Positions 22,917 through 52,145 of a DNA stretch of 64,000 bases are shown piece by piece. The notes under the pieces were generated by a model, which was not told where the DNA came from, searched no databases, and was given only the letters and a program-made list of their open reading frames with translations. Source of the stretch: Candidatus Zhuqueibacterota bacterium (GTDB taxonomy: Bacteria; Zhuqueibacterota; Zhuqueibacteria; Thermofontimicrobiales; Thiofontviventaceae). Each line of letters begins with the position of its first letter. Within the stretch, counting starts at the first letter, position 1. The DNA lies in the NCBI GenBank assembly GCA_016926625.1, contig JAFGOE010000013.1, positions 1,308 through 65,307 of the forward strand. Reading direction: 5' to 3'. Both the position numbers and the translations under genes were made by a program.

Positions 22917-25796
22917 ATGAAGAGAATCTATTTATTAGGTGTATTGATGTTTCTACCGCTGCTGATTATGGCGCAATCGAACAGTGAATTTCGTGCTACC
23001 TGGGTCATATCCTGGGATCTGGTGAACAGATATCAGAGTGTTGAAGAGAATAAGGAATTATGTCGGAAGATCTTGGATAATCATAAAAAGGCGAATATGA
23101 ACGCCGTCCTGTGGCAGGTGCGACAGAGTGGCACTGCCTATTACAAATCGTCTTTTGAACCATGGGGTTACTATGCTGGTGGCACCAATCCAGGTTACGA
23201 TATTTTTGACTATGCGGTGACCGAAGCGCATAAGCGCAATTTAGAGATACATGCCTGGTTCAATGTGTTCCATTGTTCGAGTATCGTATACGGAGCGCCA
23301 GCCGCTGTTCATCCGGAATGGGTTTGTACGAATCAAAATGGGGAATTCATGACGAACAACAGGTGTCTGTCCCCGGGGATTCCTGAAGTGAGAGATTATT
23401 TAATACGAGTCGCCATGGAAATCGTGCGAAAGTACGATATCGACGGCCTGCATATGGATTTCGTTCGGTGGAATGAATATACCGAGGATGACATGCGTAC
23501 TGCACTTCCCAAAGAGGCAGAACTGCAGGTGTTAGATGGTCACATCACTCAGGAGCAGATCGATCGTCTGAATGATACCGGGACGTTGCGCTATATTTAC
23601 GACGTACAGCATCCGTACAACGGGGGAGTCCCGTCGGGATTCTCTTCGTGGGATGATTGGCGTCGCTGGACCGTCACCGAGTTCGTTAAGGTACTTCATG
23701 ATTCGATACAATCGGTGAAACCATGGGTTAAATTATCGGCAGCGGTCCTGGGAAAATATAATTGGGACGGTTGGCAGGGATATGGGACGGTTTATCAGGA
23801 TGCGGCATTGTGGTTCAATGAAGGCTATGTGGATCATTTGATGCCCATGCATTACCACTGGACGAGTCCCATGGAATTTTATTCGATGCTGGCCGGTCCC
23901 AACGGTGATAATAATTATAATAATTGCTGGGGTAAGTATATACAAAAGGGTATTCAGCAGGGACGGCTCTATTCGGTGGGACCAGGATCGTACATTCTGA
24001 GTGACCGGGGTGTTTGGGGCAATCATGAGTCAATTGTCAAGAAGGTTAGAGAAATAGACTGGGTGGATGGTTTTCAATTTTTCAGTTATGCAACCTGGCT
24101 GACTCGCAATTATTGGGATGAGGCGAGGAACAAGTTTTTCCCGACGATAACAAAAATAGGGAATACTGTATCCGCCGATTCAACGGCACCAGATCCTCCG
24201 GACATTACGATAACGCGACTCGATACCATGGTCTACCGTATCAGCGTAACTGAGGCGGCTACGGGTGATGATCCTGCATGGTTTGTCATTTACCGCGGCA
24301 GAGATAGTACGCTTACAAAGGATAAGTCATCCATCATTCTGATAAAGTTTAGTGACGAAGGTTTTCACTATAATGATTACATCGAGGAACGAAGAGGCGG
24401 ATATTTTTACTATGGAGTTTCTGCGGCAGATCGTTTCTGGAATGAATCTGAGATATCCAATATTGTCAGGACTGACGAATTACCGCATGAATCCGTGTTT
24501 CCTGAACCACCGATCATGCAGTATGTTAAGAAACTCGACAATGGGTACGAGGTAAAATGGAAACATTCCGGAGTGAACGATTGCATGGGTTATCGATTGT
24601 ACGGGAAAGCGGTTGATACGGATTGGTATCTGTTGCTTAACGAAAGCACGTTGGACGCTGGTACCACACAGGCTGTTGTTAACACGGCGATCGAAGAAGT
24701 CCCCTGGTACTTCATGGTTCGTGCCGTGGGCCTTGGGCCTGCGGCTCATGAATCTGTTGATTCCGACGTTTACGGTACGTATCGTTCAGATACTCAGAAG
24801 GTGCTGATCGTCGACGCGTTCGATCGGATGACAGGGGAGTGGAAATCAGCCACTCATCCGTTTGCAAAGCGCGTGGCAGAATCTTTGTCGCGTTTGAACA
24901 TATCGTTCGATTGTGCGTCGGATGAGGCATTTGAGGATAAATACGTCTTGCCTGATGATTATAAGGCGGTCATCTGGCTCGCCGGTGATGCCGTAGGACA
25001 GGATGAAGCCGTTAGCTACAATAACATGTCCTATCTGGCGAACTATTTGAAACGAGGAGGAGGACTATTAATTTCTGGTAGTGAAATCGCCTATGATCTC
25101 GATTACAAGGGCAATTTTCAGGATAAAAAGTTCATTCACGAGTATCTGAAGACGACTTATCGATCAAACGGTAGCGCTGGAAATGGTTATCAGGTCGAAG
25201 GGGATGAAGGAGGGATTTTTCAAAATTTGACTTTCGAATATGACAATGGGGAGCATGGTTTCAGGGTATTGACGCCGGATATCATCGATACGACCGGAGG
25301 AAGCGTGCCGTGTCTGAATTATTTTGGCAGCCCTGATTTTGCCGGGACACAGTATCGTGGTTCGATCGGAAACGGCACCGATGAAGCGCGAGTCATCACG
25401 TTGGGTTTTCCATGCGAAGCGATTTACGCGGTCGAGCAACTCGACCAATTTTTCGATCGCGTACTTGAATTTTTTACGATTACCGGGTCGATCGACATCG
25501 CAGAGCCGGCGCGAGTGGCGGATCGATTCACTATGTGTCGGAATTATCCCAATCCCTTCAACGCGGCGACGAACATTCAATTCTCGATCGATGAAGCAAT
25601 GGATTTGAGTGTCGATATCTACAATATCAGGGGACAGGTGGTTTACAGCCAGGCCTATTCGTATGATCAGGCAGGCTTAAAGACGATGAAATGGGATGGG
25701 GCAGATCAGTCCTCCGGTGTATATCATTACCGGATATACAGAACGGACGCAGGACAGCAGACGATCCATTTCGGTAAAATGCTCTATCTGAAATAG
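22917..25796 (+). CDS. Secreted multidomain protein: N-terminal glycoside-hydrolase-like family 10 (GHL10/DUF187) domain plus C-terminal T9SS sorting domain
   Basis: A signal peptide is present. The FRATWV..NAVLWQVR motif is typical of GHL10. The C-terminus NYPNPFNAATNIQFSI...IYNIRGQVV...GVYHYRI matches the Por_Secre_tail. Confidence 0.75.
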   Translation: MKRIYLLGVLMFLPLLIMAQSNSEFRATWVISWDLVNRYQSVEENKELCRKILDNHKKANMNAVLWQVRQSGTAYYKSSFEPWGYYAGGTNPGYDIFDYAVTEAHKRNLEIHAWFNVFHCSSIVYGAPAAVHPEWVCTNQNGEFMTNNRCLSPGIPEVRDYLIRVAMEIVRKYDIDGLHMDFVRWNEYTEDDMRTALPKEAELQVLDGHITQEQIDRLNDTGTLRYIYDVQHPYNGGVPSGFSSWDDWRRWTVTEFVKVLHDSIQSVKPWVKLSAAVLGKYNWDGWQGYGTVYQDAALWFNEGYVDHLMPMHYHWTSPMEFYSMLAGPNGDNNYNNCWGKYIQKGIQQGRLYSVGPGSYILSDRGVWGNHESIVKKVREIDWVDGFQFFSYATWLTRNYWDEARNKFFPTITKIGNTVSADSTAPDPPDITITRLDTMVYRISVTEAATGDDPAWFVIYRGRDSTLTKDKSSIILIKFSDEGFHYNDYIEERRGGYFYYGVSAADRFWNESEISNIVRTDELPHESVFPEPPIMQYVKKLDNGYEVKWKHSGVNDCMGYRLYGKAVDTDWYLLLNESTLDAGTTQAVVNTAIEEVPWYFMVRAVGLGPAAHESVDSDVYGTYRSDTQKVLIVDAFDRMTGEWKSATHPFAKRVAESLSRLNISFDCASDEAFEDKYVLPDDYKAVIWLAGDAVGQDEAVSYNNMSYLANYLKRGGGLLISGSEIAYDLDYKGNFQDKKFIHEYLKTTYRSNGSAGNGYQVEGDEGGIFQNLTFEYDNGEHGFRVLTPDIIDTTGGSVPCLNYFGSPDFAGTQYRGSIGNGTDEARVITLGFPCEAIYAVEQLDQFFDRVLEFFTITGSIDIAEPARVADRFTMCRNYPNPFNAATNIQFSIDEAMDLSVDIYNIRGQVVYSQAYSYDQAGLKTMKWDGADQSSGVYHYRIYRTDAGQQTIHFGKMLYLK

Positions 25797-30590: not shown

Positions 30591-31523
30591 TCAAGCATCT
30601 GAGTCTATCTCACGTAAATTCGATGGAAATTCGATAATGTCACCGTCGTTTGCGGCAAGGACATGCGGATGCACCTTTGATGCCTCCTGTACATACAATT
30701 CAGTAGACAGATATCGTTGGGAATAATGAGTCAAAACGAGAGTTTTCGCATTGGCTTTAAGAGCAATAGATGCCGCCTGCGCTGCCGTCAGATGACCATA
30801 TTCGTATGCCAGGGCACTTTCTTCAGAAAGGTACGTCGATTCACACAGTAAAATATCGGAATTTTCAGCCAGGTCGATAGCAGATTGGCATTCACGGGTA
30901 TCCATAATGAACGCGCAGCACTGTCCTTTTTTAAGTTTACTCACATCATCGATAGATATTCGTCTGTCGTGTACATCGATAAACCCTGATTTCACCAGCT
31001 GCTTAATTGCATCCCCTTGCACTCCAATTTCAGCCAGTTTTAATGGCTGAAGTGTTCTTTTGTCCTGTTCCTCGATGCGATAGCCATAGCTTTCCACCGT
31101 ATGATCTAATGATTTACATTTGATTGAGATGTTAACATCTTCATAAATAGTACCGGCAGATATGAACGGTTTTAGGACGATGTGTGTTTCTTCGTGATAT
31201 ATAGCAGCGTGAAGTAAGTTATTCACGTAGGGGGTTCCGTACTCTGGAAAATATAATTCGATATCATGCTGAACACGATCCAGAGAGATCCGTTGCACGA
31301 TTCCCGCCAGTCCTAAACAGTGGTCACCGTGAAAATGGGTGATGAATATTTTTGTGATGGATGATGAAGAGATATTGTTGAAAATTAATTGTCGTTGAGA
31401 ACCTTCACCGGGATCAAATAAGAATCCCTGTCCGTCCCATCTAAGAAAATAGCCACCCTGGTTGCGCGTTCGGGTTGGTACTTGTGCGGATGTGCCGAGA
31501 ATGTGAAATCTTTTTTGCGACAT
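30591..31523 (-). CDS. rnz: Ribonuclease Z (MBL-fold tRNA 3'-processing endonuclease)
   Basis: The motifs FDPGEGSQRQ (cf. FDCGEGTQ), HFHGDHCLGL and the C-terminal HYSQRY are present. The start was set at the Met (MSQKRFHILGT) downstream of the hairpin. The ORF is open to 31586. Confidence 0.75.
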   Translation of the reverse strand: MSQKRFHILGTSAQVPTRTRNQGGYFLRWDGQGFLFDPGEGSQRQLIFNNISSSSITKIFITHFHGDHCLGLAGIVQRISLDRVQHDIELYFPEYGTPYVNNLLHAAIYHEETHIVLKPFISAGTIYEDVNISIKCKSLDHTVESYGYRIEEQDKRTLQPLKLAEIGVQGDAIKQLVKSGFIDVHDRRISIDDVSKLKKGQCCAFIMDTRECQSAIDLAENSDILLCESTYLSEESALAYEYGHLTAAQAASIALKANAKTLVLTHYSQRYLSTELYVQEASKVHPHVLAANDGDIIEFPSNLREIDSDA

Positions 31524-31550
31524 AGTATGAGATAAAATGTAATTTTTGAT

Positions 31551-31588
31551 ATGCCCCATTCTTGCACTGAGTGAAGAGTGGGGCATGT
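31551..31588 (-). other. Stem-loop (8-bp stem ATGCCCCA/TGGGGCAT, 20-nt loop) between encapsulin and rnz
   Basis: This was read directly from the sequence. It lies 13 nt after the encapsulin stop and has only a weak U-tract. Confidence 0.3.
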
Positions 31589-31600
31589 TTAGCTAGTCGA

Positions 31601-32401
31601 TTATTTTGTCTGGATATTCAAAACGACTGCAGGATCGACCGAATAGAAAGTAAATGATTCTGTAAAATACAGGCGGACTTTCTTCTGATCATGGGAGTGA
31701 AAACCGATGGACAGATCCTGGCCCAGTACGAGTTTCAAATCGCCGCCTCGCATCGAAACAAGGAATGAATCGTCGGTCGATGGGTTGATAATAACCGGTC
31801 CGCCGAGTATGCGCTCCAATTGGTTCTTCAACGGATAGCCCTTGATATAGGCGTAAATTGATTTCCATATTTGAGGATTAATGATGAGGGCGTATGGTCC
31901 TGAAATGGACGCATCAGCAAATAATGCCAGTCCGTTGCTAACTGTGGTCAGGATATCTTCGGCTTTACCCGAATACTGTAACGGTTGATGCGGTGAAACG
32001 TCTTTGATACCCTGAATCTTCCCGCTTTTAAAGCCCAGATAGATTGCTCGTTCTTCGAACAGGGCGATATTTTTAGCGGCTTTCTCCATCGCTGCTAGGT
32101 CGATATCTTCTGCGCCTCGTTCGATGTTATCGAGTTCCCACAGATCGAGTTCAAAAAAGGAACGTGTTTCGACGAGAGGTAGAATACGATGCACGCCGTA
32201 ATCAACGCCTTCGTAATCCTGTTTTTTCGGAACATCCAGTCTGCCGAGTTGAACTGCAGCGTAATCCCATCCTTTTGGCCCTTCGACGTCAACGAATTTA
32301 CGGGCTGATAGATGAGACGCTAAAATGATTTTTGCCTGGTTGTCTATTTCCTGCCATGCACTCTGAGTAATCGGTGCCAGCGAACGTTTTAATATATCCA
32401 T
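31601..32401 (-). CDS. Family 1 encapsulin shell protein (Linocin_M18 / HK97-fold nanocompartment)
   Basis: It is near-colinear with T. maritima encapsulin: LKRSLAPITQSAWQEIDNQA, RKFVDVEGPKGWDYAA, LDLWELDN, GGDLKLVLGQDLSIG and RLYFTESFTF. Confidence 0.92.
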   Translation of the reverse strand: MDILKRSLAPITQSAWQEIDNQAKIILASHLSARKFVDVEGPKGWDYAAVQLGRLDVPKKQDYEGVDYGVHRILPLVETRSFFELDLWELDNIERGAEDIDLAAMEKAAKNIALFEERAIYLGFKSGKIQGIKDVSPHQPLQYSGKAEDILTTVSNGLALFADASISGPYALIINPQIWKSIYAYIKGYPLKNQLERILGGPVIINPSTDDSFLVSMRGGDLKLVLGQDLSIGFHSHDQKKVRLYFTESFTFYSVDPAVVLNIQTK

Positions 32402-44159: not shown

Positions 44160-44900
44160 TTAGAAAAGTTTTTCGTAACGCGCGGCGACATCCTGCCAAT
44201 TGATAATATCGAATAGTTTATCCACATAGGCGGCGCGTGCATTCTGATATTTAAGATAATAGGCATGTTCCCAAACATCGATCACGAGCAATGGCATAGC
44301 ACCCCATTGGGTGAGGTTTTGATGGATTTCGGACTGCAAAATCACGAGTCGCTGGAAGATTGGCTGATAGGCCAATATACCCCAGCCGCTTCCTTCGACA
44401 GATTTTGATGCGGCGGATAATTGAGCCTTGAGTGTATCGAAATTACCAAATTCAGCGTTTATTGCGTCCGCAAGTTTCCCCGCAGGCGTACCACCACCCT
44501 GGGGTGAAAGATTTTCCCAATAGATTGTATGAAGTATATGTCCTGATCCATGAAATGCCAGTTCTTTTGACCAGTGTTTGACCATAGCGAAATCGCCTTC
44601 GGCCCGTGCTTTCGCCATCATATTTTCGGCATGATTCAATCCTCTTACATAACCCGCATGATGTTTATCATGGTGCAGTGTCACGGTCTCAACATCGATC
44701 ACCGGCTCGAGGGCATCGTAGGCATAAGGTAGTGGTGGCAACAGATGATTACCCTGTGGTATCATCGTTGTTGCTCTGATTGTTTTCTCTTTTAAGGCGG
44801 TGTCCTGGGCTTTCAATCCCGATGAGATTGCTGAACCCAGCACGATAGCCCCACCGCCGATACTCAACTGCTTTAAAAATTCTCTTCGGCCTTTCGACAT
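44160..44900 (-). CDS. Fe/Mn-family superoxide dismutase with twin-arginine (Tat) signal peptide
   Basis: The N-terminus GRREFLKQLSIGGGAIVLG is the Tat consensus S/T-R-R-x-F-L-K. The SOD motifs LPYAYDALEP..HHDKHH and DVWEHAYY are present. Confidence 0.9.
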   Translation of the reverse strand: MSKGRREFLKQLSIGGGAIVLGSAISSGLKAQDTALKEKTIRATTMIPQGNHLLPPLPYAYDALEPVIDVETVTLHHDKHHAGYVRGLNHAENMMAKARAEGDFAMVKHWSKELAFHGSGHILHTIYWENLSPQGGGTPAGKLADAINAEFGNFDTLKAQLSAASKSVEGSGWGILAYQPIFQRLVILQSEIHQNLTQWGAMPLLVIDVWEHAYYLKYQNARAAYVDKLFDIINWQDVAARYEKLF

Positions 44901-44969: not shown

Positions 44970-46142
44970 TTAAAATCCCCCGGTCAGGCCAAATGTCATT
45001 CGATTGACTTCGTATTCGATATCCCGTGTGTATTCGGCGATAAGCCTTAAATTTCGTGATAACAGGTACGTGCCGCTCAGCGTCGCCGTCTCATAGGGAT
45101 ACAGATCTGATTCGATCTTATTGTACAGTCCCGTGAAATAGAACCTTGATCGATCTAATTGCGGAGCGTATATCAATTCGGCGATATAGCCTTTGGCATC
45201 AAATTCGGTCGCATCATCGGCAAACAACGGATTGGTATCTTTTCTCTCCAGATATTGACCCGTGAACTCAAGCGGACCGACGCTTACGTTGATGTCGGGT
45301 CCCCAATAGGTGATTTCATTTTTCAATTGGGAACCTACTTCCTTTTCTTTGCCCTGATAAAAATACGCGCCGATGCTCATAAAATCGCCGATACCCTCAC
45401 TGATTCTAAACCCGAAATTTTTGTAATCATCGTTGTCAAATTTTAAATCGTCTCCTGCCTCATCTTTCCCATTGCCATTGACAACGAAAGCAATCAGGTC
45501 GGTACCTGTTTTTTCGATGCCATAGACCAGCATGATACCGCGATCGTAGGCGAGATTCGTGCCCGAGTGACCGAACCTTGTCTTGTAGAACACATAATCC
45601 TCGAAGGTCAGGCGCAATTCTCTCTTCATCAGGGGATCAGACGTCTGGAACTGGCCCACCATAATGTCAAGCGGGGTGCTGAAGACATTATCGAAATGTA
45701 TATAGGCATCTTCGATACCGGCGACTTCCCCGCGTTCTGACATATAAAAATAGAAATAATATCCGATGCTTTTATAGAGAGTTCCGCCTGACATTAGTTT
45801 TAATCCCCAGGGAATTTGCAGGTCCTTTTCAACCTCCTGATCCTGATCAAAGTGAGCATAAGCGTCGAAGCGCACGGCGAGAGGGAATTCCTTGTTCAGC
45901 CATAACAGTTCATCGCCAGCGGTTACGTAATCGCGTTCCTGCTCATCTTCGACGATAATAAATCCATTTCCGGCAAATTCGTCACCATACGGTTTCAATT
46001 TTGGAAACGGAGCATGGCAGGTATTACACGATATCTTATATCGACGGGCAAAGGCGGGGATAGCTCCCGATTCATCGACGATGATTAAATTGATGGTTAG
46101 GAATAAGATCAGCAGCGTGAAAACAAACAATTTACTTCTCAT
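44970..46142 (-). CDS. Cyc2-like fused monoheme cytochrome c / outer-membrane beta-barrel porin
   Basis: A GGAGGG RBS and a signal peptide are present. The motif IPAFARRYKISCNTCH has CxxCH at 46014-46028, directly after signal cleavage; this is the PxFARxY-CxxCH pattern described for Cyc2. The rest of the protein has alternating amphipathic beta-strand character and ends in a C-terminal Phe. Confidence 0.6.
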   Translation of the reverse strand: MRSKLFVFTLLILFLTINLIIVDESGAIPAFARRYKISCNTCHAPFPKLKPYGDEFAGNGFIIVEDEQERDYVTAGDELLWLNKEFPLAVRFDAYAHFDQDQEVEKDLQIPWGLKLMSGGTLYKSIGYYFYFYMSERGEVAGIEDAYIHFDNVFSTPLDIMVGQFQTSDPLMKRELRLTFEDYVFYKTRFGHSGTNLAYDRGIMLVYGIEKTGTDLIAFVVNGNGKDEAGDDLKFDNDDYKNFGFRISEGIGDFMSIGAYFYQGKEKEVGSQLKNEITYWGPDINVSVGPLEFTGQYLERKDTNPLFADDATEFDAKGYIAELIYAPQLDRSRFYFTGLYNKIESDLYPYETATLSGTYLLSRNLRLIAEYTRDIEYEVNRMTFGLTGGF

Positions 46143-46165
46143 CAGACACCCTCCTAAATAATTCG

Positions 46166-47512
46166 TTACTCATATACTTCCACCCATGTTTCGGCAGAAT
46201 TGACAGGGATAATTTCGCTTTCATCCTCAGGCACATTGAGGAAATCGGCGACCGGTTTTACTAATTTCTGATAGTTTAATTGAGCCTTGAAATGGACTTT
46301 CCCGATGGCGATGTCATCCGGTAGCGGCCACGTAAATGTCTCGATCTTGGTTTCACGGGGACCGATCCTGTAATCGACGCCGAGTGATTTCGTGTTCCAC
46401 TGCATGATGGTCATGCGACCTTCGGGATCAAAATACGGCATTCTGAAGATACGATCTCCAAACGGCACACCATCACGTTGTATTCCTTGAAAATTCGGAA
46501 TCCGTTTGGGTATGCCCAGATCTTGATAAGCTAACACATCGGAGGAGATGGTATATTCTTCGCCTGCAAAACCTTTCTTATCGACTTTCAGATGATATTC
46601 CTTGCCTTCAGCATCGGTAGCGGTGACGTGGAGCCATAAAATACGATCTTCAACAGAACCTGAGGGAATTTTATGCCCTGCTTTGGCATTGAACAGTTGG
46701 ACTTTTAGCACGATGGTGTCGTCGTATTCGATCTCGCGTTCCTCGGGATGCATCCTCAACTCAATGGATCCGCCCACTTTACCGCGATCATGGGCACCGT
46801 GGAACAGATGCTGTGAGACGGTATCGATCTCGGCCATGGTTGCGTTTTTACCCAGTGCCCTTGGCATGTGACATTGGTGACAGGGGACTCCCTCTTTCGC
46901 ATAAGGCCCTTCTTTCCATTCGATTTGTGTTGATTTGACATAGACATCGAACGGACTCTTCTCGTTATGGCAATTGGCACAATATTCCGTTTGTGTATAG
47001 AATTCTTTGTACGCTGTCTCATGGTGTGGTGAGACGGCACCGGGTTTATTGCCGTATTTTACGCGACCAGGCTGTGAGACGTAGCTGAAATTGTACGGAA
47101 TATCTCCTTTGTAACCCGAGATCGTATGGCACACATCGCAGCTTACACTTTCGTTGGCGCGGGAATTTTTTTCCGGGCGTGGCGGGGGAACATCACCGGC
47201 CAGATACGCCATGGGGGTGTGGCAACCATTACATCCGTGCGAAGCGGACAAGAACCTTTCATCCACTTTGGCGTGTTCGACTGCCAGATCGAAATATTCG
47301 ATCTCATCCCAGTGATGGGTGTAGGCTTGTGCCATCATGGATTGTGTCCATTGTTGATAGATATCGACGTGACAGCTCTTGCATGTTTTGGGATTCTCGA
47401 ACTGGTCGTAACTCTTGGTGCCCATCGCCTCTTCCCCCGAGGGTAAATCTTGAGCAAGCATTGTCAAACTTGATAACAAAATGACTAATACAAAAATAAT
47501 GAGATATCTCAT
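46166..47512 (-). CDS. Periplasmic pentaheme c-type cytochrome
   Basis: The start is set at MRYLIIF with a GGAGGAGG RBS immediately upstream. A signal peptide is present. There are five CxxCH motifs: CKSCH, CNGCH, CDVCH, CANCH and CHQCH. The C-terminal half of about 230 aa has no heme motifs. Confidence 0.8.
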   Translation of the reverse strand: MRYLIIFVLVILLSSLTMLAQDLPSGEEAMGTKSYDQFENPKTCKSCHVDIYQQWTQSMMAQAYTHHWDEIEYFDLAVEHAKVDERFLSASHGCNGCHTPMAYLAGDVPPPRPEKNSRANESVSCDVCHTISGYKGDIPYNFSYVSQPGRVKYGNKPGAVSPHHETAYKEFYTQTEYCANCHNEKSPFDVYVKSTQIEWKEGPYAKEGVPCHQCHMPRALGKNATMAEIDTVSQHLFHGAHDRGKVGGSIELRMHPEEREIEYDDTIVLKVQLFNAKAGHKIPSGSVEDRILWLHVTATDAEGKEYHLKVDKKGFAGEEYTISSDVLAYQDLGIPKRIPNFQGIQRDGVPFGDRIFRMPYFDPEGRMTIMQWNTKSLGVDYRIGPRETKIETFTWPLPDDIAIGKVHFKAQLNYQKLVKPVADFLNVPEDESEIIPVNSAETWVEVYE

Positions 47513-47691
47513 GCCTCCTCCGCTAGGAAAAAATGATGTGAAGTTTTTATTTGCATTAAAAATGGTGTTTTTTATTCTAATTTTGAGATTAGTGTTCCGA
47601 TTCATTGTGATAATTTAATATACAACATATTGATGATAAATCAAGTATTTTCTGACCAAAAAAAGGAAATATTTCGGCTCACATCAGGAGA

Positions 47692-48744: not shown

Positions 48745-49968
48745 TCAATTTAGATGTTGGTTGATGAGTTCCAGGTAGTCGATCAGTATTCGGGTAATGA
48801 GAAATTTTTCCCGCACGTATTCCTTACCCGCCGTACCGATGCGATGAGCCAACTCATCGTTGTTTATCAGCTCTATGATTTGTTCTGCAAATCCATCGTA
48901 ATCATGAGGATCGTACAAGAAACCATTGATGCCGTGTTCGATCTGCAGCGGGATGCCGCCGACTCGGGAAGCGACGACCGGAGTCTGTTTCCAAAGCGCT
49001 TCGGTCACCGTGAGTCCAAACCCCTCACGAATGGATTTTTGTATAATCACACGCGAAATCTGTTGAAGTACATTGACCAGAATATGGCTTTCATAGGTAA
49101 GTAGAATCAGGTCACCACTTTTGATCAGGTGCTGAGCGTCCTGTTTGACTTTCTCGTAAATTTTTAGGCCTTCCGGGTCATCAGAAGCCATGTTACCGCA
49201 GAGGATCAAACGGCAATCAATTTTCTTTTTGACCCGTTTGAATACGTTAATGACACCAATTGGATCTTTCCATTTATCAAACCTGGATATTTGAGTAATC
49301 AATGGTTTATCCGTCGGAATGTGAAATTTATTGATTATCTTTTTGATCGTCACATCGTTTAGCGGCTTATTTTTATGGGTTAGCGGATCGATCGCCGGGT
49401 TAATGATGTAATGTCTCATGGGAAGATCGTTTTTGTAGCTCTCATGCGATACGATCATAGAATCGTACTTCAATATAAAACCCTTCAAGTAATCCCACAA
49501 TTCTGCGTGGGGGTGAGAGAGGTCGATGTGACAACGCCATATCCACGGCTGACGTTTTTTATAGAATTGGATTAATGGTAACGGTTGTGGATCATGTATG
49601 ATGACCAGATCGTGATCCAGATGGGTGTAGGTAGAAAAATCCTCGTTAGCCTGCATATATAATTTTTTCTTTATCGTACTAAGATTGATCGAGTCACCTT
49701 GCAGCGCGTTATGAAATTTTTTTGTTATTGAGAAGAGATCATTCGAACCTCGAATGATTCGCCAGCCGGCATCAATGCCGGCATCGTTCATTAAAGGAAC
49801 GAGGCTGCTCAATATTTCGGCCACACCACCGCCGTAATAGGTTGAGTTGACGTGGATGACTCGTTTGCCATACAATCGGTTTGCCAATTTATAGATGTTG
49901 CTTATAATTCGATCGTCGACTATTCCTCTATAGTCATTTATTGATTTCATTGTCAAGTTTCTCCTCAT
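48745..49968 (-). CDS. GT4-family glycosyltransferase, trehalose synthase (TreT)-like
   Basis: The segments HVNSTYYGGGVAEIL near the N-terminus and the C-terminal Glycos_transf_1 EGFGLTVTEALWK are present. The ATG overlaps the otsAB stop (ATGA). Confidence 0.6.
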   Translation of the reverse strand: MRRNLTMKSINDYRGIVDDRIISNIYKLANRLYGKRVIHVNSTYYGGGVAEILSSLVPLMNDAGIDAGWRIIRGSNDLFSITKKFHNALQGDSINLSTIKKKLYMQANEDFSTYTHLDHDLVIIHDPQPLPLIQFYKKRQPWIWRCHIDLSHPHAELWDYLKGFILKYDSMIVSHESYKNDLPMRHYIINPAIDPLTHKNKPLNDVTIKKIINKFHIPTDKPLITQISRFDKWKDPIGVINVFKRVKKKIDCRLILCGNMASDDPEGLKIYEKVKQDAQHLIKSGDLILLTYESHILVNVLQQISRVIIQKSIREGFGLTVTEALWKQTPVVASRVGGIPLQIEHGINGFLYDPHDYDGFAEQIIELINNDELAHRIGTAGKEYVREKFLITRILIDYLELINQHLN

Positions 49969-52145
49969 GAAGTTAGTGAACGGAGTAATTCTCTGACTTG
50001 TTCTGGTGATTTTATATTATATTTAGCCGTAGATGGGTTTAATCCTACTTTGATGGAATATGCCTCCAACGGTAAGACCTTAAATAGGTCTTCATCCGTC
50101 CAATCATCACCAATCGCCATGATGAAGCTCGGTTCGTCATGATCTTTATTAATCCACATGAGCGCTGTTCTACCTTTGTTGACACCGGCGTTTTTTACCT
50201 CTATGACCTTGTTTCCCTCCAGAACCTGTAAGTCGAGATTTGATGTGAGATAACTCAATGTAGTCACGAGTTCCCGTGAACGAATCGCGGCAAATTCAGG
50301 ATCGCACAACCGATAATGCCAGGCCAAAGAAAAGGATTTCCTCTCGATCCGTGCACCGGGTGTCCTGTCCACGTATTGGATCATTATCGGTTCTATCTCA
50401 TCCTTCCATGAATCATCGAACGTATCGATGGGCGTAATTTCTGAATTTTCCTGTTTCAGGTATGCGCCGTGTTCGGCGACCAATGAAAGTTTTAGATGAC
50501 CGAACCATTTATTTAGCGTCTCCATCTTCCTGCCGCTGATAATGACAACCTCATTTCGCGGGTCGTTGGTGAGCAGCTTGAGTATGTCGATCAGTTCTTC
50601 ATCTGGTCTTGCATCTTCCGGTGTTCTGGAAAACGGAACCAGCGTACCATCGTAATCAAGAAAGATGAGTCGATGCGCACTGCGATTAAAGTCCTTGAGC
50701 AACTGGTTTATAGATGATTCACTGAGTCGGTTAACTAAAATTTTGCTCTGCTGTTCCTTGATATCCTTGAGGGAGTCGATATACAATTCGGCCCATTTGT
50801 GCACATCATATCGTTTTAATTTTTCTTGCATCGAAGATATCCTGTTATGTTGTTCTTCGGGTGGCATCACCAGCGCTGTTTCGATGGCGGTGACCATTTC
50901 GTTGATATCGTTCGGATTTATCAAGAGTGCGTCACCTAATTCAACCGCTGCACCGGCCATTTCGCTGAGAATCAGCACACCGTCTTTTTCGGTCTTGCTC
51001 GCCACGTACTCCTTGGCGATTAAATTCATCCCATCTCGAAAAGGTGTAACGAGCGCTATATCAGCTATTTTATATAGTGCAACCAGTTCTTCGAATTCGA
51101 GCGCACGGTACATGAAATGAACCGGGGAATAATTGATCGATGAATATTTGCCCTCGATTTGACCTACCAGGTTATCTACCTCTTTTTTCAGTAGTTGATA
51201 ATGTTTGACGCTCGACCGTGAAGGAACGACCACGATGATGAGGGTGATCTTACCCCGGTATTGTGGATTTCTTTCAAGAAACAGATCAAAACATTTTAAT
51301 CGTTGCGGTATCGCTTTGGAGTAGTCGAGACGGTCGATCGATAGTAGAATTTTGCAGCTTGATAATGATTTATAGTATTTCTTTAACTCTTTATCTATCT
51401 CTGGTACTGAATTCTTGACCGCGTATTTTTCATAATCGATTCCCATCGGAAACGCATCGACACGAATAATTCGATCGTCGTAATTGAGACGATTGAACGT
51501 ACGTTCTATACCGAGTAGACGAGTGGCAGCACTTAAAAAATGACGCGCGTAATCGTAGGTGTGAAATCCGATAAGGTCAGCACCGAGTATCCCATGGAGA
51601 ATTTCCTTTCGCCAGGGAAGTGTTCTGAAAATTTCGAATGAGGGAAATGGGATATGCAGAAAGAACCCGATCGATGTTCGTGGATTCTTCTGACGGATTA
51701 GTTCGGGTAGTAACATTAACTGGTAATCATGAATCCATATGATATCGTCCGTTGATACTTTATCGGCGATTTCGTTGCAAAATAGTTTGTTCACATAACG
51801 ATAGGCGTCCCACAGTTCCTGATGATAAACCGTATATTGTGCAAAATAATGAAACAATGGCCAGATGGTTTTGTTAGAAAATCCTTCATAATATTTCTCA
51901 ATCTGATTTTTACTGAGAAATACGGGGCTCATGTGTTGTTTTTTAAAATTATCTCGAATCTTTTGTTTCTCAACTTTGCTGGTTGTAAAATATCCTGGCC
52001 AACCGACCCAGATACCATCTTGTGATTGATAATAAGATCCGACACCAGTGGCTAATCCCCCTGAACTCGACATGTAGAGCAGATCCTTATCCTGTTTTTC
52101 AACTCGTACAGGTAAACGGTTTGAAACGATGATCATTTTTCCCAT
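49965..52145 (-). CDS. otsAB: Bifunctional trehalose-6-phosphate synthase (GT20, OtsA) / trehalose-6-phosphate phosphatase (HAD, OtsB) fusion
   Basis: The N-terminus MIIVSNRLPV is followed by a GT20 core. The C-terminal HAD motif IFLDYDGTLVPF and the GDDWTDEDLF motif are present. Confidence 0.85.
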   Translation of the reverse strand: MGKMIIVSNRLPVRVEKQDKDLLYMSSSGGLATGVGSYYQSQDGIWVGWPGYFTTSKVEKQKIRDNFKKQHMSPVFLSKNQIEKYYEGFSNKTIWPLFHYFAQYTVYHQELWDAYRYVNKLFCNEIADKVSTDDIIWIHDYQLMLLPELIRQKNPRTSIGFFLHIPFPSFEIFRTLPWRKEILHGILGADLIGFHTYDYARHFLSAATRLLGIERTFNRLNYDDRIIRVDAFPMGIDYEKYAVKNSVPEIDKELKKYYKSLSSCKILLSIDRLDYSKAIPQRLKCFDLFLERNPQYRGKITLIIVVVPSRSSVKHYQLLKKEVDNLVGQIEGKYSSINYSPVHFMYRALEFEELVALYKIADIALVTPFRDGMNLIAKEYVASKTEKDGVLILSEMAGAAVELGDALLINPNDINEMVTAIETALVMPPEEQHNRISSMQEKLKRYDVHKWAELYIDSLKDIKEQQSKILVNRLSESSINQLLKDFNRSAHRLIFLDYDGTLVPFSRTPEDARPDEELIDILKLLTNDPRNEVVIISGRKMETLNKWFGHLKLSLVAEHGAYLKQENSEITPIDTFDDSWKDEIEPIMIQYVDRTPGARIERKSFSLAWHYRLCDPEFAAIRSRELVTTLSYLTSNLDLQVLEGNKVIEVKNAGVNKGRTALMWINKDHDEPSFIMAIGDDWTDEDLFKVLPLEAYSIKVGLNPSTAKYNIKSPEQVRELLRSLTS

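Follow-up and report, generated by a model that had tools for sequence, protein, structure and literature searches.

What would a Cyc2-like cytochrome-porin do in a bacterium that resembles a heterotroph, and does the multihaem cytochrome encoded beside it belong to the same electron route? This question is raised by two genes in a 64-kb stretch of contig JAFGOE010000013.1 (hereafter the window, always at its full length), from an uncultured sediment bacterium of Candidatus Zhuqueibacterota, or candidate division KSB1. Both open reading frames lie on the minus strand, head to tail: a gene for a five-haem c-type cytochrome (46166..47512; 448 aa) and, downstream of it, a gene for a Cyc2-like fused one-haem cytochrome-porin (44970..46142; 390 aa), here called the barrel protein. 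Identical proteins are held in NCBI as JXB12_01300 and JXB12_01305 of candidate division KSB1. An earlier sequence-only reading of this DNA had proposed that the two proteins make up an outer-membrane electron conduit. The reading favoured here, with a little more confidence than doubt, is a two-protein, six-haem conduit through which electrons would flow inward.

The structure of the locus is straightforward. The two genes are separated by a gap of 23 bp (46143-46165), and each has its own ribosome-binding site. AGGAGG (46150..46155, minus strand) stands 7 nt before the ATG of the barrel gene, while GGAGGAGG (47514..47521, minus strand) lies directly before the ATG of the five-haem gene at 47512; both Shine-Dalgarno elements were read from the sequence. 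One operon is the best explanation of this arrangement. Among all reading frames of at least 60 aa in the window, CxxCH motifs occur in these two genes only, and by a rough estimate the real genes of the window should contain fewer than 0.1 such motifs through chance. In alignments of 46 barrel and 40 five-haem homologues, each of the six is invariant. What the sequence-only reading had described at this level is borne out: the coordinates, the strong ribosome-binding sites, the single N-terminal CxxCH and terminal Phe of the 390-aa protein, and a secreted cytochrome 23 bp upstream with five CxxCH motifs and a haem-free part of some 230 aa (233 aa by the present count).

A signal peptide opens the 390-aa protein, AIPAFARRYKISCNTCH follows, and the last residue is Phe (...GLTGGF). 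The predicted signal peptide (residues 1-27; 46062..46142, minus strand) comprises MRSK, a hydrophobic stretch and VDESGA, with cleavage before IPAF. Its assignment draws on sequence features, on a helix at residues 2-21 of the structural model and on an alignment with Mariprofundus Cyc2, whose own signal peptide ends in ...SEA, with IPAFAR following. AIPAFARRYKISCNTCHAPFPKL comes right after the signal peptide. The protein has only two Cys residues, C39 and C42, which together with H43 form the single CxxCH. As this motif lies about 12 residues past the likely cleavage site, it is not inside the signal peptide, a position that the sequence-only reading had named as a threat to its case. The N-terminal cytochrome module (residues 28-85; 45888..46061, minus strand) carries AIPAFARRY, CNTCH (46014-46028) and PKL, and C39, C42, H43, P47 and L49 are invariant in the alignment of 46 homologues.

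The remainder of the protein (residues 86-390; 44973..45887, minus strand), which ends in the terminal Phe, models as a 16-strand OprP-like barrel, the fold that had been expected of it, and the best structural match of the model is an anion-specific porin of this OprP-like kind. Conservation within the barrel peaks in the loop that joins strands 5 and 6 (residues 164-183, QFQTSDPLMKRELRLTFEDY; 45594..45653, minus strand), which sits between model strands 158-167 and 198-209. In 46 sequences, 15 of its 20 residues are invariant, and it is nearly invariant across phyla. In classical 16-strand porins, its position is that of L3, the pore constriction loop, and it may hold the haem or bind substrate. 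A reduced form of the loop, GQFQxSD...RLT..DY, is kept in barrel relatives at about 30% identity.

Is this protein a Cyc2? Published criteria for Cyc2 comprise a signal peptide, one CXXCH, the motif AXPXFAR[Q/K][T/Y], a PXL, a length of at least 365 aa and a 16-strand OprO/OprP-like porin (PMC8406198). The signal peptide, the single CxxCH, the PxL and the length are all found in the barrel protein, and its model has a 16-strand porin domain of the OprO/OprP-like type. Neither Pfam nor NCBIfam has a Cyc2 model. In Pfam, the barrel protein gave only a sub-threshold match to SlpA_C (25 vs 35 bits), and it gave no match in NCBIfam or in a sequence search of the PDB. The Cyc2 query consisted of published mass-spectrometry peptides of strain PV-1 joined together. 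This query recovered Mariprofundus ferrooxydans proteins of 426-429 aa, beginning ...SEAIPAFARQTGAACLSCHFQTFPALNAFGR, and also more than 100 relatives, of which the named ones belong to Zetaproteobacteria or Mariprofundaceae.

With BLASTP, the barrel protein and M. ferrooxydans Cyc2 share 43% identity over 42 aa (E 4e-7), in an alignment that pairs P47-K-L49 with P-A-L through one gap; the PxL of the window protein is one residue nearer the haem site than that of Cyc2. Common to the barrel protein and Mariprofundus Cyc2 are AIPAFAR, a five-residue spacing to the CxxCH, and then P-x-L...[FY]G...F. Profile comparison with hhalign extended this likeness. The KSB1-type family matched a set of 40 Zetaproteobacterial Cyc2 proteins at 97.3% (E 1.8e-11, 142 columns), and at 98.1% (E 9e-14, 129 columns) with ten distant relatives added. 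These comparisons support the kinship with Cyc2 that the sequence-only reading had suggested, and the barrel protein would appear to be a member of the broad Cyc2 family with one motif deviation. Like Cyc2 of M. ferrooxydans PV-1 and Acidithiobacillus ferrooxidans, and like Cyt572 of Leptospirillum, it has a signal peptide, a CxxCH about 12 residues into the mature protein and a 16-strand OprP-like barrel, all within about 400 aa. The hosts differ: those of the window-type barrel are heterotroph-like bacteria of the FCB superphylum, whereas those of Cyc2 are known iron oxidisers.

The upstream gene encodes a protein that begins MRYLIIF and has a Sec signal peptide, no lipobox and a c552/ExtKL fold. 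The gene is read here as 448 aa because its homologues are nearly all 445-449 aa, and on the same ground a longer reading of 479 aa was rejected. That longer frame, obtained mechanically, runs back to 47605 (47513-47605 add 31 codons), and an annotation pipeline could call the 479-aa product, in which the signal peptide is buried. The protein has exactly ten Cys, all within the five CxxCH motifs (residues 44, 94, 125, 178 and 211), and the Cys and His positions delimit a haem-binding cap (residues 44-215; 46868..47383, minus strand). Five further His residues (H66, H164, H235, H241 and H280) are invariant in the 40 homologues. As far as an alignment can indicate, they could serve as distal ligands, leaving all five haems bis-His-ligated. 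Residues 216-448 (233 aa) contain no haem motif. Most of this part, from about residue 246 to residue 448 (46169..46777, minus strand), is modelled as an immunoglobulin (Ig)-like beta-sandwich with a model confidence (pLDDT) mostly of 70-96. This C-terminal domain matches the stem of PDB entry 5ZE8, contains the invariant motif GHKxPxGSVEDR and has a mean pairwise identity of 76%.

PDB entry 5ZE8, the 435-aa chain of Thermochromatium tepidum c552, is also the best match of the protein as a whole, both by profile (E 1.5e-11) and in Foldseek (E 2.6e-12), where the other matches were generic Ig-like sandwiches. The two proteins are alike in length, in the N-terminal cap with five CxxCH motifs and in the C-terminal Ig-like beta-sandwich, at an identity of only about 18%. 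Pfam Cytochrome_C554 matches the window protein at 39 bits, and the NCBIfam ExtKL model NF040886 at 58.1 bits vs a cut-off of 250. The cytochromes c552 and ExtKL, together with those of cable bacteria, have been grouped as one five-haem family (PMC11976967).

Two enzymatic identities were considered for this protein and rejected. ExtKL of Geobacter is MccSep, a tetrameric polysulfide reductase with a five-haem cap and an Ig-like stem that is also a selenite reductase, and its activity requires a Cys ligand on haem 2 (Cys239) and a selenocysteine (Sec325). The window gene has no Cys codon outside the CxxCH motifs and no in-frame TGA, and its stop is TAA, so equivalents of Cys239 and Sec325 are absent. 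Together with the sub-cut-off ExtKL score, the missing catalytic Cys and Sec rule out an MccSep/ExtKL-type enzyme. The window system and ExtKL/MccSep of Geobacter sulfurreducens do share five haems, an Ig-like stem and an outer-membrane porin gene in the cluster. However, the selenoenzyme MccSep has Sec325 and a Cys ligand on its haem 2, neither of which occurs in the window protein, and the porin ExtI is not reported to carry haem, whereas the window barrel is a 16-strand Cyc2-type porin with a haem site of its own.

An NrfA/NrfH identity fails as well, with scores of 10 vs 692.5 bits for TIGR03152 and 22.9 vs 134.2 bits for TIGR03153. PDB chains of NrfA matched at E 0.13 or worse, and no CxxCK occurs among the five haem motifs, all of which end in His. 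The sequence-only reading had named an Nrf-type protein with unrelated partners of its own as an outcome that would undo it; instead, the Nrf models stay far below their cut-offs and a barrel gene adjoins the five-haem gene in nearly every locus compared. From the lack of the MccSep Cys and Sec, and from the five extra His that are possible ligands, we infer that the five-haem protein would be an electron carrier or store and not an enzyme.

The strongest link between the two proteins comes from the distribution of their genes. When genomes were scanned with one representative per species, at least 229 species-level genomes proved to encode a protein close to the barrel protein, and the barrel clade comprises 3,233 database proteins at E 0.001 or better. 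Almost no distant relative had a name, the exception being one from a Gammaproteobacteria MAG. The comparison covered 81 loci, and the pair is also carried by the closed MAGs OY843751.1, CP070677.1 and CP070707.1. The best 80 of the 229 genomes are metagenome-assembled genomes (MAGs) of KSB1/Zhuqueibacterota, Calditrichota, Latescibacterota, Eisenbacteria, Krumholzibacteriota, Gemmatimonadota and Neomarinimicrobiota. The barrel gene is immediately preceded by the five-haem gene, on the same strand, in 79 of the 81 loci and in at least seven phyla of the FCB superphylum. The remaining two loci end before the position of the five-haem gene; the pairing is thus obligate, with the same order and strand in all 79 informative loci.

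A third conserved gene (quinol dehydrogenase, oxidase or extracellular cytochrome) was sought by clustering the open reading frames, and no family occurred in more than 23 of the 81 loci. The most frequent other neighbour family, in 23 loci, is apparently a mixture of proteins with the sorting tail of the type IX secretion system (T9SS). As a control, cyc2 of M. ferrooxydans has no adjacent haem gene, which argues that the pairing is specific to the FCB-type clade and agrees with the earlier statement that a five-haem partner is non-canonical. Both proteins are strongly conserved. Across phyla, barrel identity averages 67% with a minimum of 56%, figures that are somewhat inflated as the conservation alignment was drawn from the best 120 matches; the mean for Zetaproteobacterial Cyc2 barrels is 43%. 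Where a superoxide dismutase (SOD) gene adjoins the pair, SOD is less conserved than either the barrel or the five-haem protein. Such conservation would fit a tight match between the surfaces of the two proteins. As they are always encoded together in many related phyla, the pair is probably a compact electron route across the outer membrane.

Other genes recur beside the pair in some lineages. Oxygen-stress genes flank it in 24 of 79 loci (about 30%), in three arrangements and in different lineages, a count that stands without a random genomic background and may reflect chance association. The annotations of these neighbours were confirmed with Pfam. Desulfoferrodoxin is encoded upstream in 10 loci (L003, L005, L007-L009, L020, L024, L025, L032 and L043). 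A flavodiiron protein is encoded directly upstream in nine, mostly from Calditrichota (L018, L021, L023, L037, L053, L055, L057, L066 and L076), and ferritin appears in five, often with desulfoferrodoxin (L003, L008-L010 and L020). In the window, a gene for an Fe/Mn superoxide dismutase with a twin-arginine signal (44160..44900, minus strand; Pfam Sod_Fe_N and Sod_Fe_C, TAT signal model) follows the barrel gene on the same strand at a distance of 69 bp. This arrangement is found in 9 of the 81 loci, and the SOD is possibly an accessory gene of the pair and not a core part. Genes for cytochrome c maturation and terminal oxidases had been suggested as context to look for. No cytochrome maturation, oxidase or quinol dehydrogenase genes were found in the 64-kb window; CcsA/ResB-type maturation genes flank the pair in 11 related loci (Pfam Cytochrom_C_asm). 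A CcsA-type gene with a ResB-like partner adjoins the pair in L022, L026, L029, L033, L045, L056, L058, L074, L075 and L081.

How might such a pair work? In the favoured six-haem conduit, the Cyc2-type 16-strand barrel would span the outer membrane and carry its c-type haem at its periplasmic mouth or within it. The five-haem protein, soluble in the periplasm, would act as a wire or electron store. If all six motifs are loaded with haem and the two proteins make contact, it would move electrons between the barrel haem and inner-membrane redox partners encoded elsewhere. Since a 16-strand pore cannot hold a multihaem protein, the reactant outside would be small and soluble, most likely dissolved Fe(II). 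Electrons would then pass from Fe(II) to the barrel haem, from there to the five-haem protein, and on to the quinone pool or to oxidases or peroxidases; use of the conduit under oxygen exposure would agree with the stress genes nearby. Fe(II) uptake and inward flow are favoured by analogy, as all Cyc2 proteins tested so far take electrons in (PMC8406198).

A more specific version of this conduit can be imagined, and it is possible though doubtful. Here, the five-haem protein would plug or dock at the periplasmic mouth of the barrel, giving a fixed six-haem complex. This complex would be a third conduit class beside stand-alone Cyc2 and the Mtr/Mto sheath type, spread over at least seven mostly uncultured FCB phyla. 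Whenever oxygen enters their habitat, these heterotrophs, which lean towards anaerobic life, would draw electrons from dissolved Fe(II) through it and feed them into periplasmic reduction of oxygen or peroxide, thereby limiting Fenton damage. A docked complex with this role in oxygen defence would explain the recurrent superoxide reductase, flavodiiron, SOD and ferritin neighbours. A multihaem cytochrome and a barrel encoded side by side are known from MtoAB/PioAB and MtrAB, and Mto and Pio serve Fe(II) oxidation. The window pair resembles MtrAB/MtoAB in that a periplasm-facing multihaem cytochrome and an outer-membrane barrel are encoded by adjacent genes. However, MtrAB/MtoAB have a large barrel that sheathes a cytochrome of about ten haems, an architecture that the window pair does not share.

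Several observations weigh against an inward-flowing, Cyc2-based conduit. The AIPAFARRY of the window protein agrees with the Cyc2 motif at eight of nine positions, with the spacing kept and Arg in place of Gln/Lys. The exact motif does occur in two orthologues that are 60-66% identical to the window protein (AIPAFARQY in L037 and AIPAFARKY in L046). The match to verified Cyc2 covers only about 130-140 N-terminal columns. It extends from the signal peptide through the haem module into the first strands, and the remaining barrel is tied to Cyc2 by fold alone; poor conservation of the porin part is a known trait of Cyc2 (PMC8406198). The AlphaFold2 models have low confidence in the haem regions of both proteins, in the case of the five-haem cap because this program does not model haems. 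Recent horizontal spread, and not constraint, could lie behind the high identity across phyla. In addition, the window has no gene for an inner-membrane partner or an oxidase close to the pair, and none recurs across the loci. T. tepidum c552 has been described as low-potential, and a low-potential five-haem protein would suit outward, reductive flow better than Fe(II) oxidation to oxygen. The doubt over inward flow arises because the known members of this fold are a low-potential cytochrome and a reductase, with no oxidase linked to the pair.

The same conduit could thus be run outward, from the quinol pool through the five-haem protein and the barrel haem to an extracellular acceptor that is soluble or enters the pore. 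Chelated Fe(III), Mn(III), humic quinones or oxygen species could play this part, and the pair would be a small Mtr/Pcc analogue for anaerobic heterotrophs. Outward flow would suit the heterotroph-like hosts, given that the window encodes peptidases, amino-acid symporters and glycosidases, and KSB1 has been described as largely facultatively anaerobic. It would also suit a five-haem protein whose nearest relatives are a low-potential cytochrome and a reductase, as bis-His multihaem cytochromes are usually low-potential, and in locus L041 genes for 10- and 11-haem cytochromes lie 3 kb from the pair. Nevertheless, outward flow is considered unlikely. It runs counter to the direction of every Cyc2 tested (PMC8406198), and insoluble minerals would be beyond the reach of a one-haem 16-strand pore. 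Moreover, no extracellular cytochrome is conserved beside the pair in the 81 loci, and no linked quinol dehydrogenase gene is found in the window or in those loci.

It is rather improbable that the pair is no conduit and that the five-haem protein is instead an enzyme of the periplasm that converts or detoxifies a small anion or a reactive oxygen or nitrogen species. In that case, the OprP-like barrel would be its dedicated substrate channel, a role proposed for the ExtI porin encoded beside ExtKL, and the barrel haem would have a sensing, gating or auxiliary role. The porin gene extI belongs to the ExtKL cluster of Geobacter and has been linked to selenite and tellurite reduction. MccSep, which has the same fold, reduces polysulfide and selenite and clusters with extI, the top structural match of the barrel is an anion-specific porin, and oxygen-stress genes adjoin the pair in 24 of 79 loci. 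Yet the window protein lacks the catalytic Cys and Sec/Cys by which MccSep is defined, nothing such as a CxxCK points to an open haem site, and the five extra invariant His suffice for five haems. The ExtKL score of 58 bits falls far short of the cut-off of 250, the stress-gene association could be chance, and an invariant Cyc2-type haem module on a porin would be left unexplained. A last alternative, which seems very improbable, holds that descent or horizontal transfer has kept the two genes side by side while their products act independently, as an ordinary Cyc2-type iron oxidase and an unrelated periplasmic cytochrome. Adjacency by itself is no proof of interaction, and the 81 loci are not independent observations because all belong to one closely related protein clade (58-78% identity). 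However, the pair stays intact across at least seven phyla while all other neighbours change, with order and strand preserved in 79 of 79 informative loci. The gap in the window is just 23 bp, and a similarly strong constraint acts on both proteins.

Beyond the pair, signals of regulation were sought around the genes. A promoter-like site, TTGATT-16-TATATT (47617..47644, minus strand; consensus scan), lies between the patatin and five-haem genes, but it is weak evidence because promoter and terminator scans of the region gave counts not above those of shuffled sequence. When the sequences preceding the five-haem gene in 65 loci were compared in search of a common operator, AT-rich words were all that emerged and no palindrome was enriched; the palindrome TTGATTTATCATCAA in the window was discarded as an operator as it is not conserved. 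In KSB1 relatives, proteins with the N-terminal motif GKTGxTxxGCxCHG, which is not a standard haem motif, are encoded one to three genes downstream of the pair (L005:7332-8135, L005:8976-9473, L006:4369-5163, L007:8200-9003, L015:1300-2115 and L016:2358-2642); the one in L007 has 267 aa and a T9SS sorting tail. In locus L041, open reading frames for 11-, 10- and 4-haem cytochromes lie about 3 kb downstream of the pair (L041:9292-11868) and may represent a separate multihaem system.

The neighbours of the pair in the window are unrelated housekeeping genes, including those for a patatin-like lipase, TreT, a PP-loop ATPase and a probable metal ABC transporter. Further genes encode a P-type ATPase, peptidases and amino-acid symporters. 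The TreT trehalose synthase gene (48745-49968, minus strand) overlaps by 4 bp a 726-aa open reading frame (49965-52145, minus strand) that looks like a fused trehalose-phosphate synthase/phosphatase, which would put two trehalose routes side by side. Elsewhere, a gene for an encapsulin shell protein (31601-32401, minus strand; Linocin_M18, E 5e-81) adjoins a gene of the metallo-beta-lactamase fold (30591-31586, minus strand). A 959-aa GHL10-family glycosidase (22917-25796, plus strand) carries a C-terminal T9SS sorting domain (Por_Secre_tail), from which it follows that the organism uses type IX secretion, as the sequence-only reading had assumed of its lineage.

How much of this is new? Genes resembling cyc2 had already been reported in KSB1, Calditrichota, Eisenbacteria, Krumholzibacteriota, Gemmatimonadota and the 'FCB group' (PMC9769843, PMC7329443). 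Three of the orthologue loci compared here, L031, L037 and L046, come from the MAGs Dive96_bin1.135, bin3.123 and bin3.88, which had been listed as cyc2-like carriers with this N-terminal motif; a supplementary figure of the same study, legible only in part by machine, gives an AIPAFARKYK... motif for the three (PMC9769843). A Cyc2-like gene in a KSB1 genome is therefore not new. In a limited literature search, nothing was found on a five-haem partner and its c552/ExtKL fold, on the strict synteny or on how unusually conserved the barrel is. The novelty claimed by the sequence-only reading thus narrows to one point: only the pairing of a five-haem cytochrome with the barrel looks new.

Cyc2 serves as a survey marker for iron oxidation, but what it signifies in organisms not known to oxidise iron is openly acknowledged to be uncertain, above all for 'cluster 3' (PMC8406198). 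A large clade with a fixed, highly conserved five-haem partner that is absent from canonical Cyc2 offers a concrete two-gene system to express and measure. Such a measurement would tell whether Cyc2-like genes in sediment heterotrophs mean iron oxidation, metal reduction or oxygen defence, and the heterotrophs concerned are abundant (KSB1, Calditrichota, Latescibacterota and others). The pair would also place a non-enzymatic cytochrome of the c552/ExtKL fold, in which the founding member still lacks an assigned role, in a first physiological context. Should the two proteins assemble into a complex, no smaller multi-protein haem path across an outer membrane would be known.

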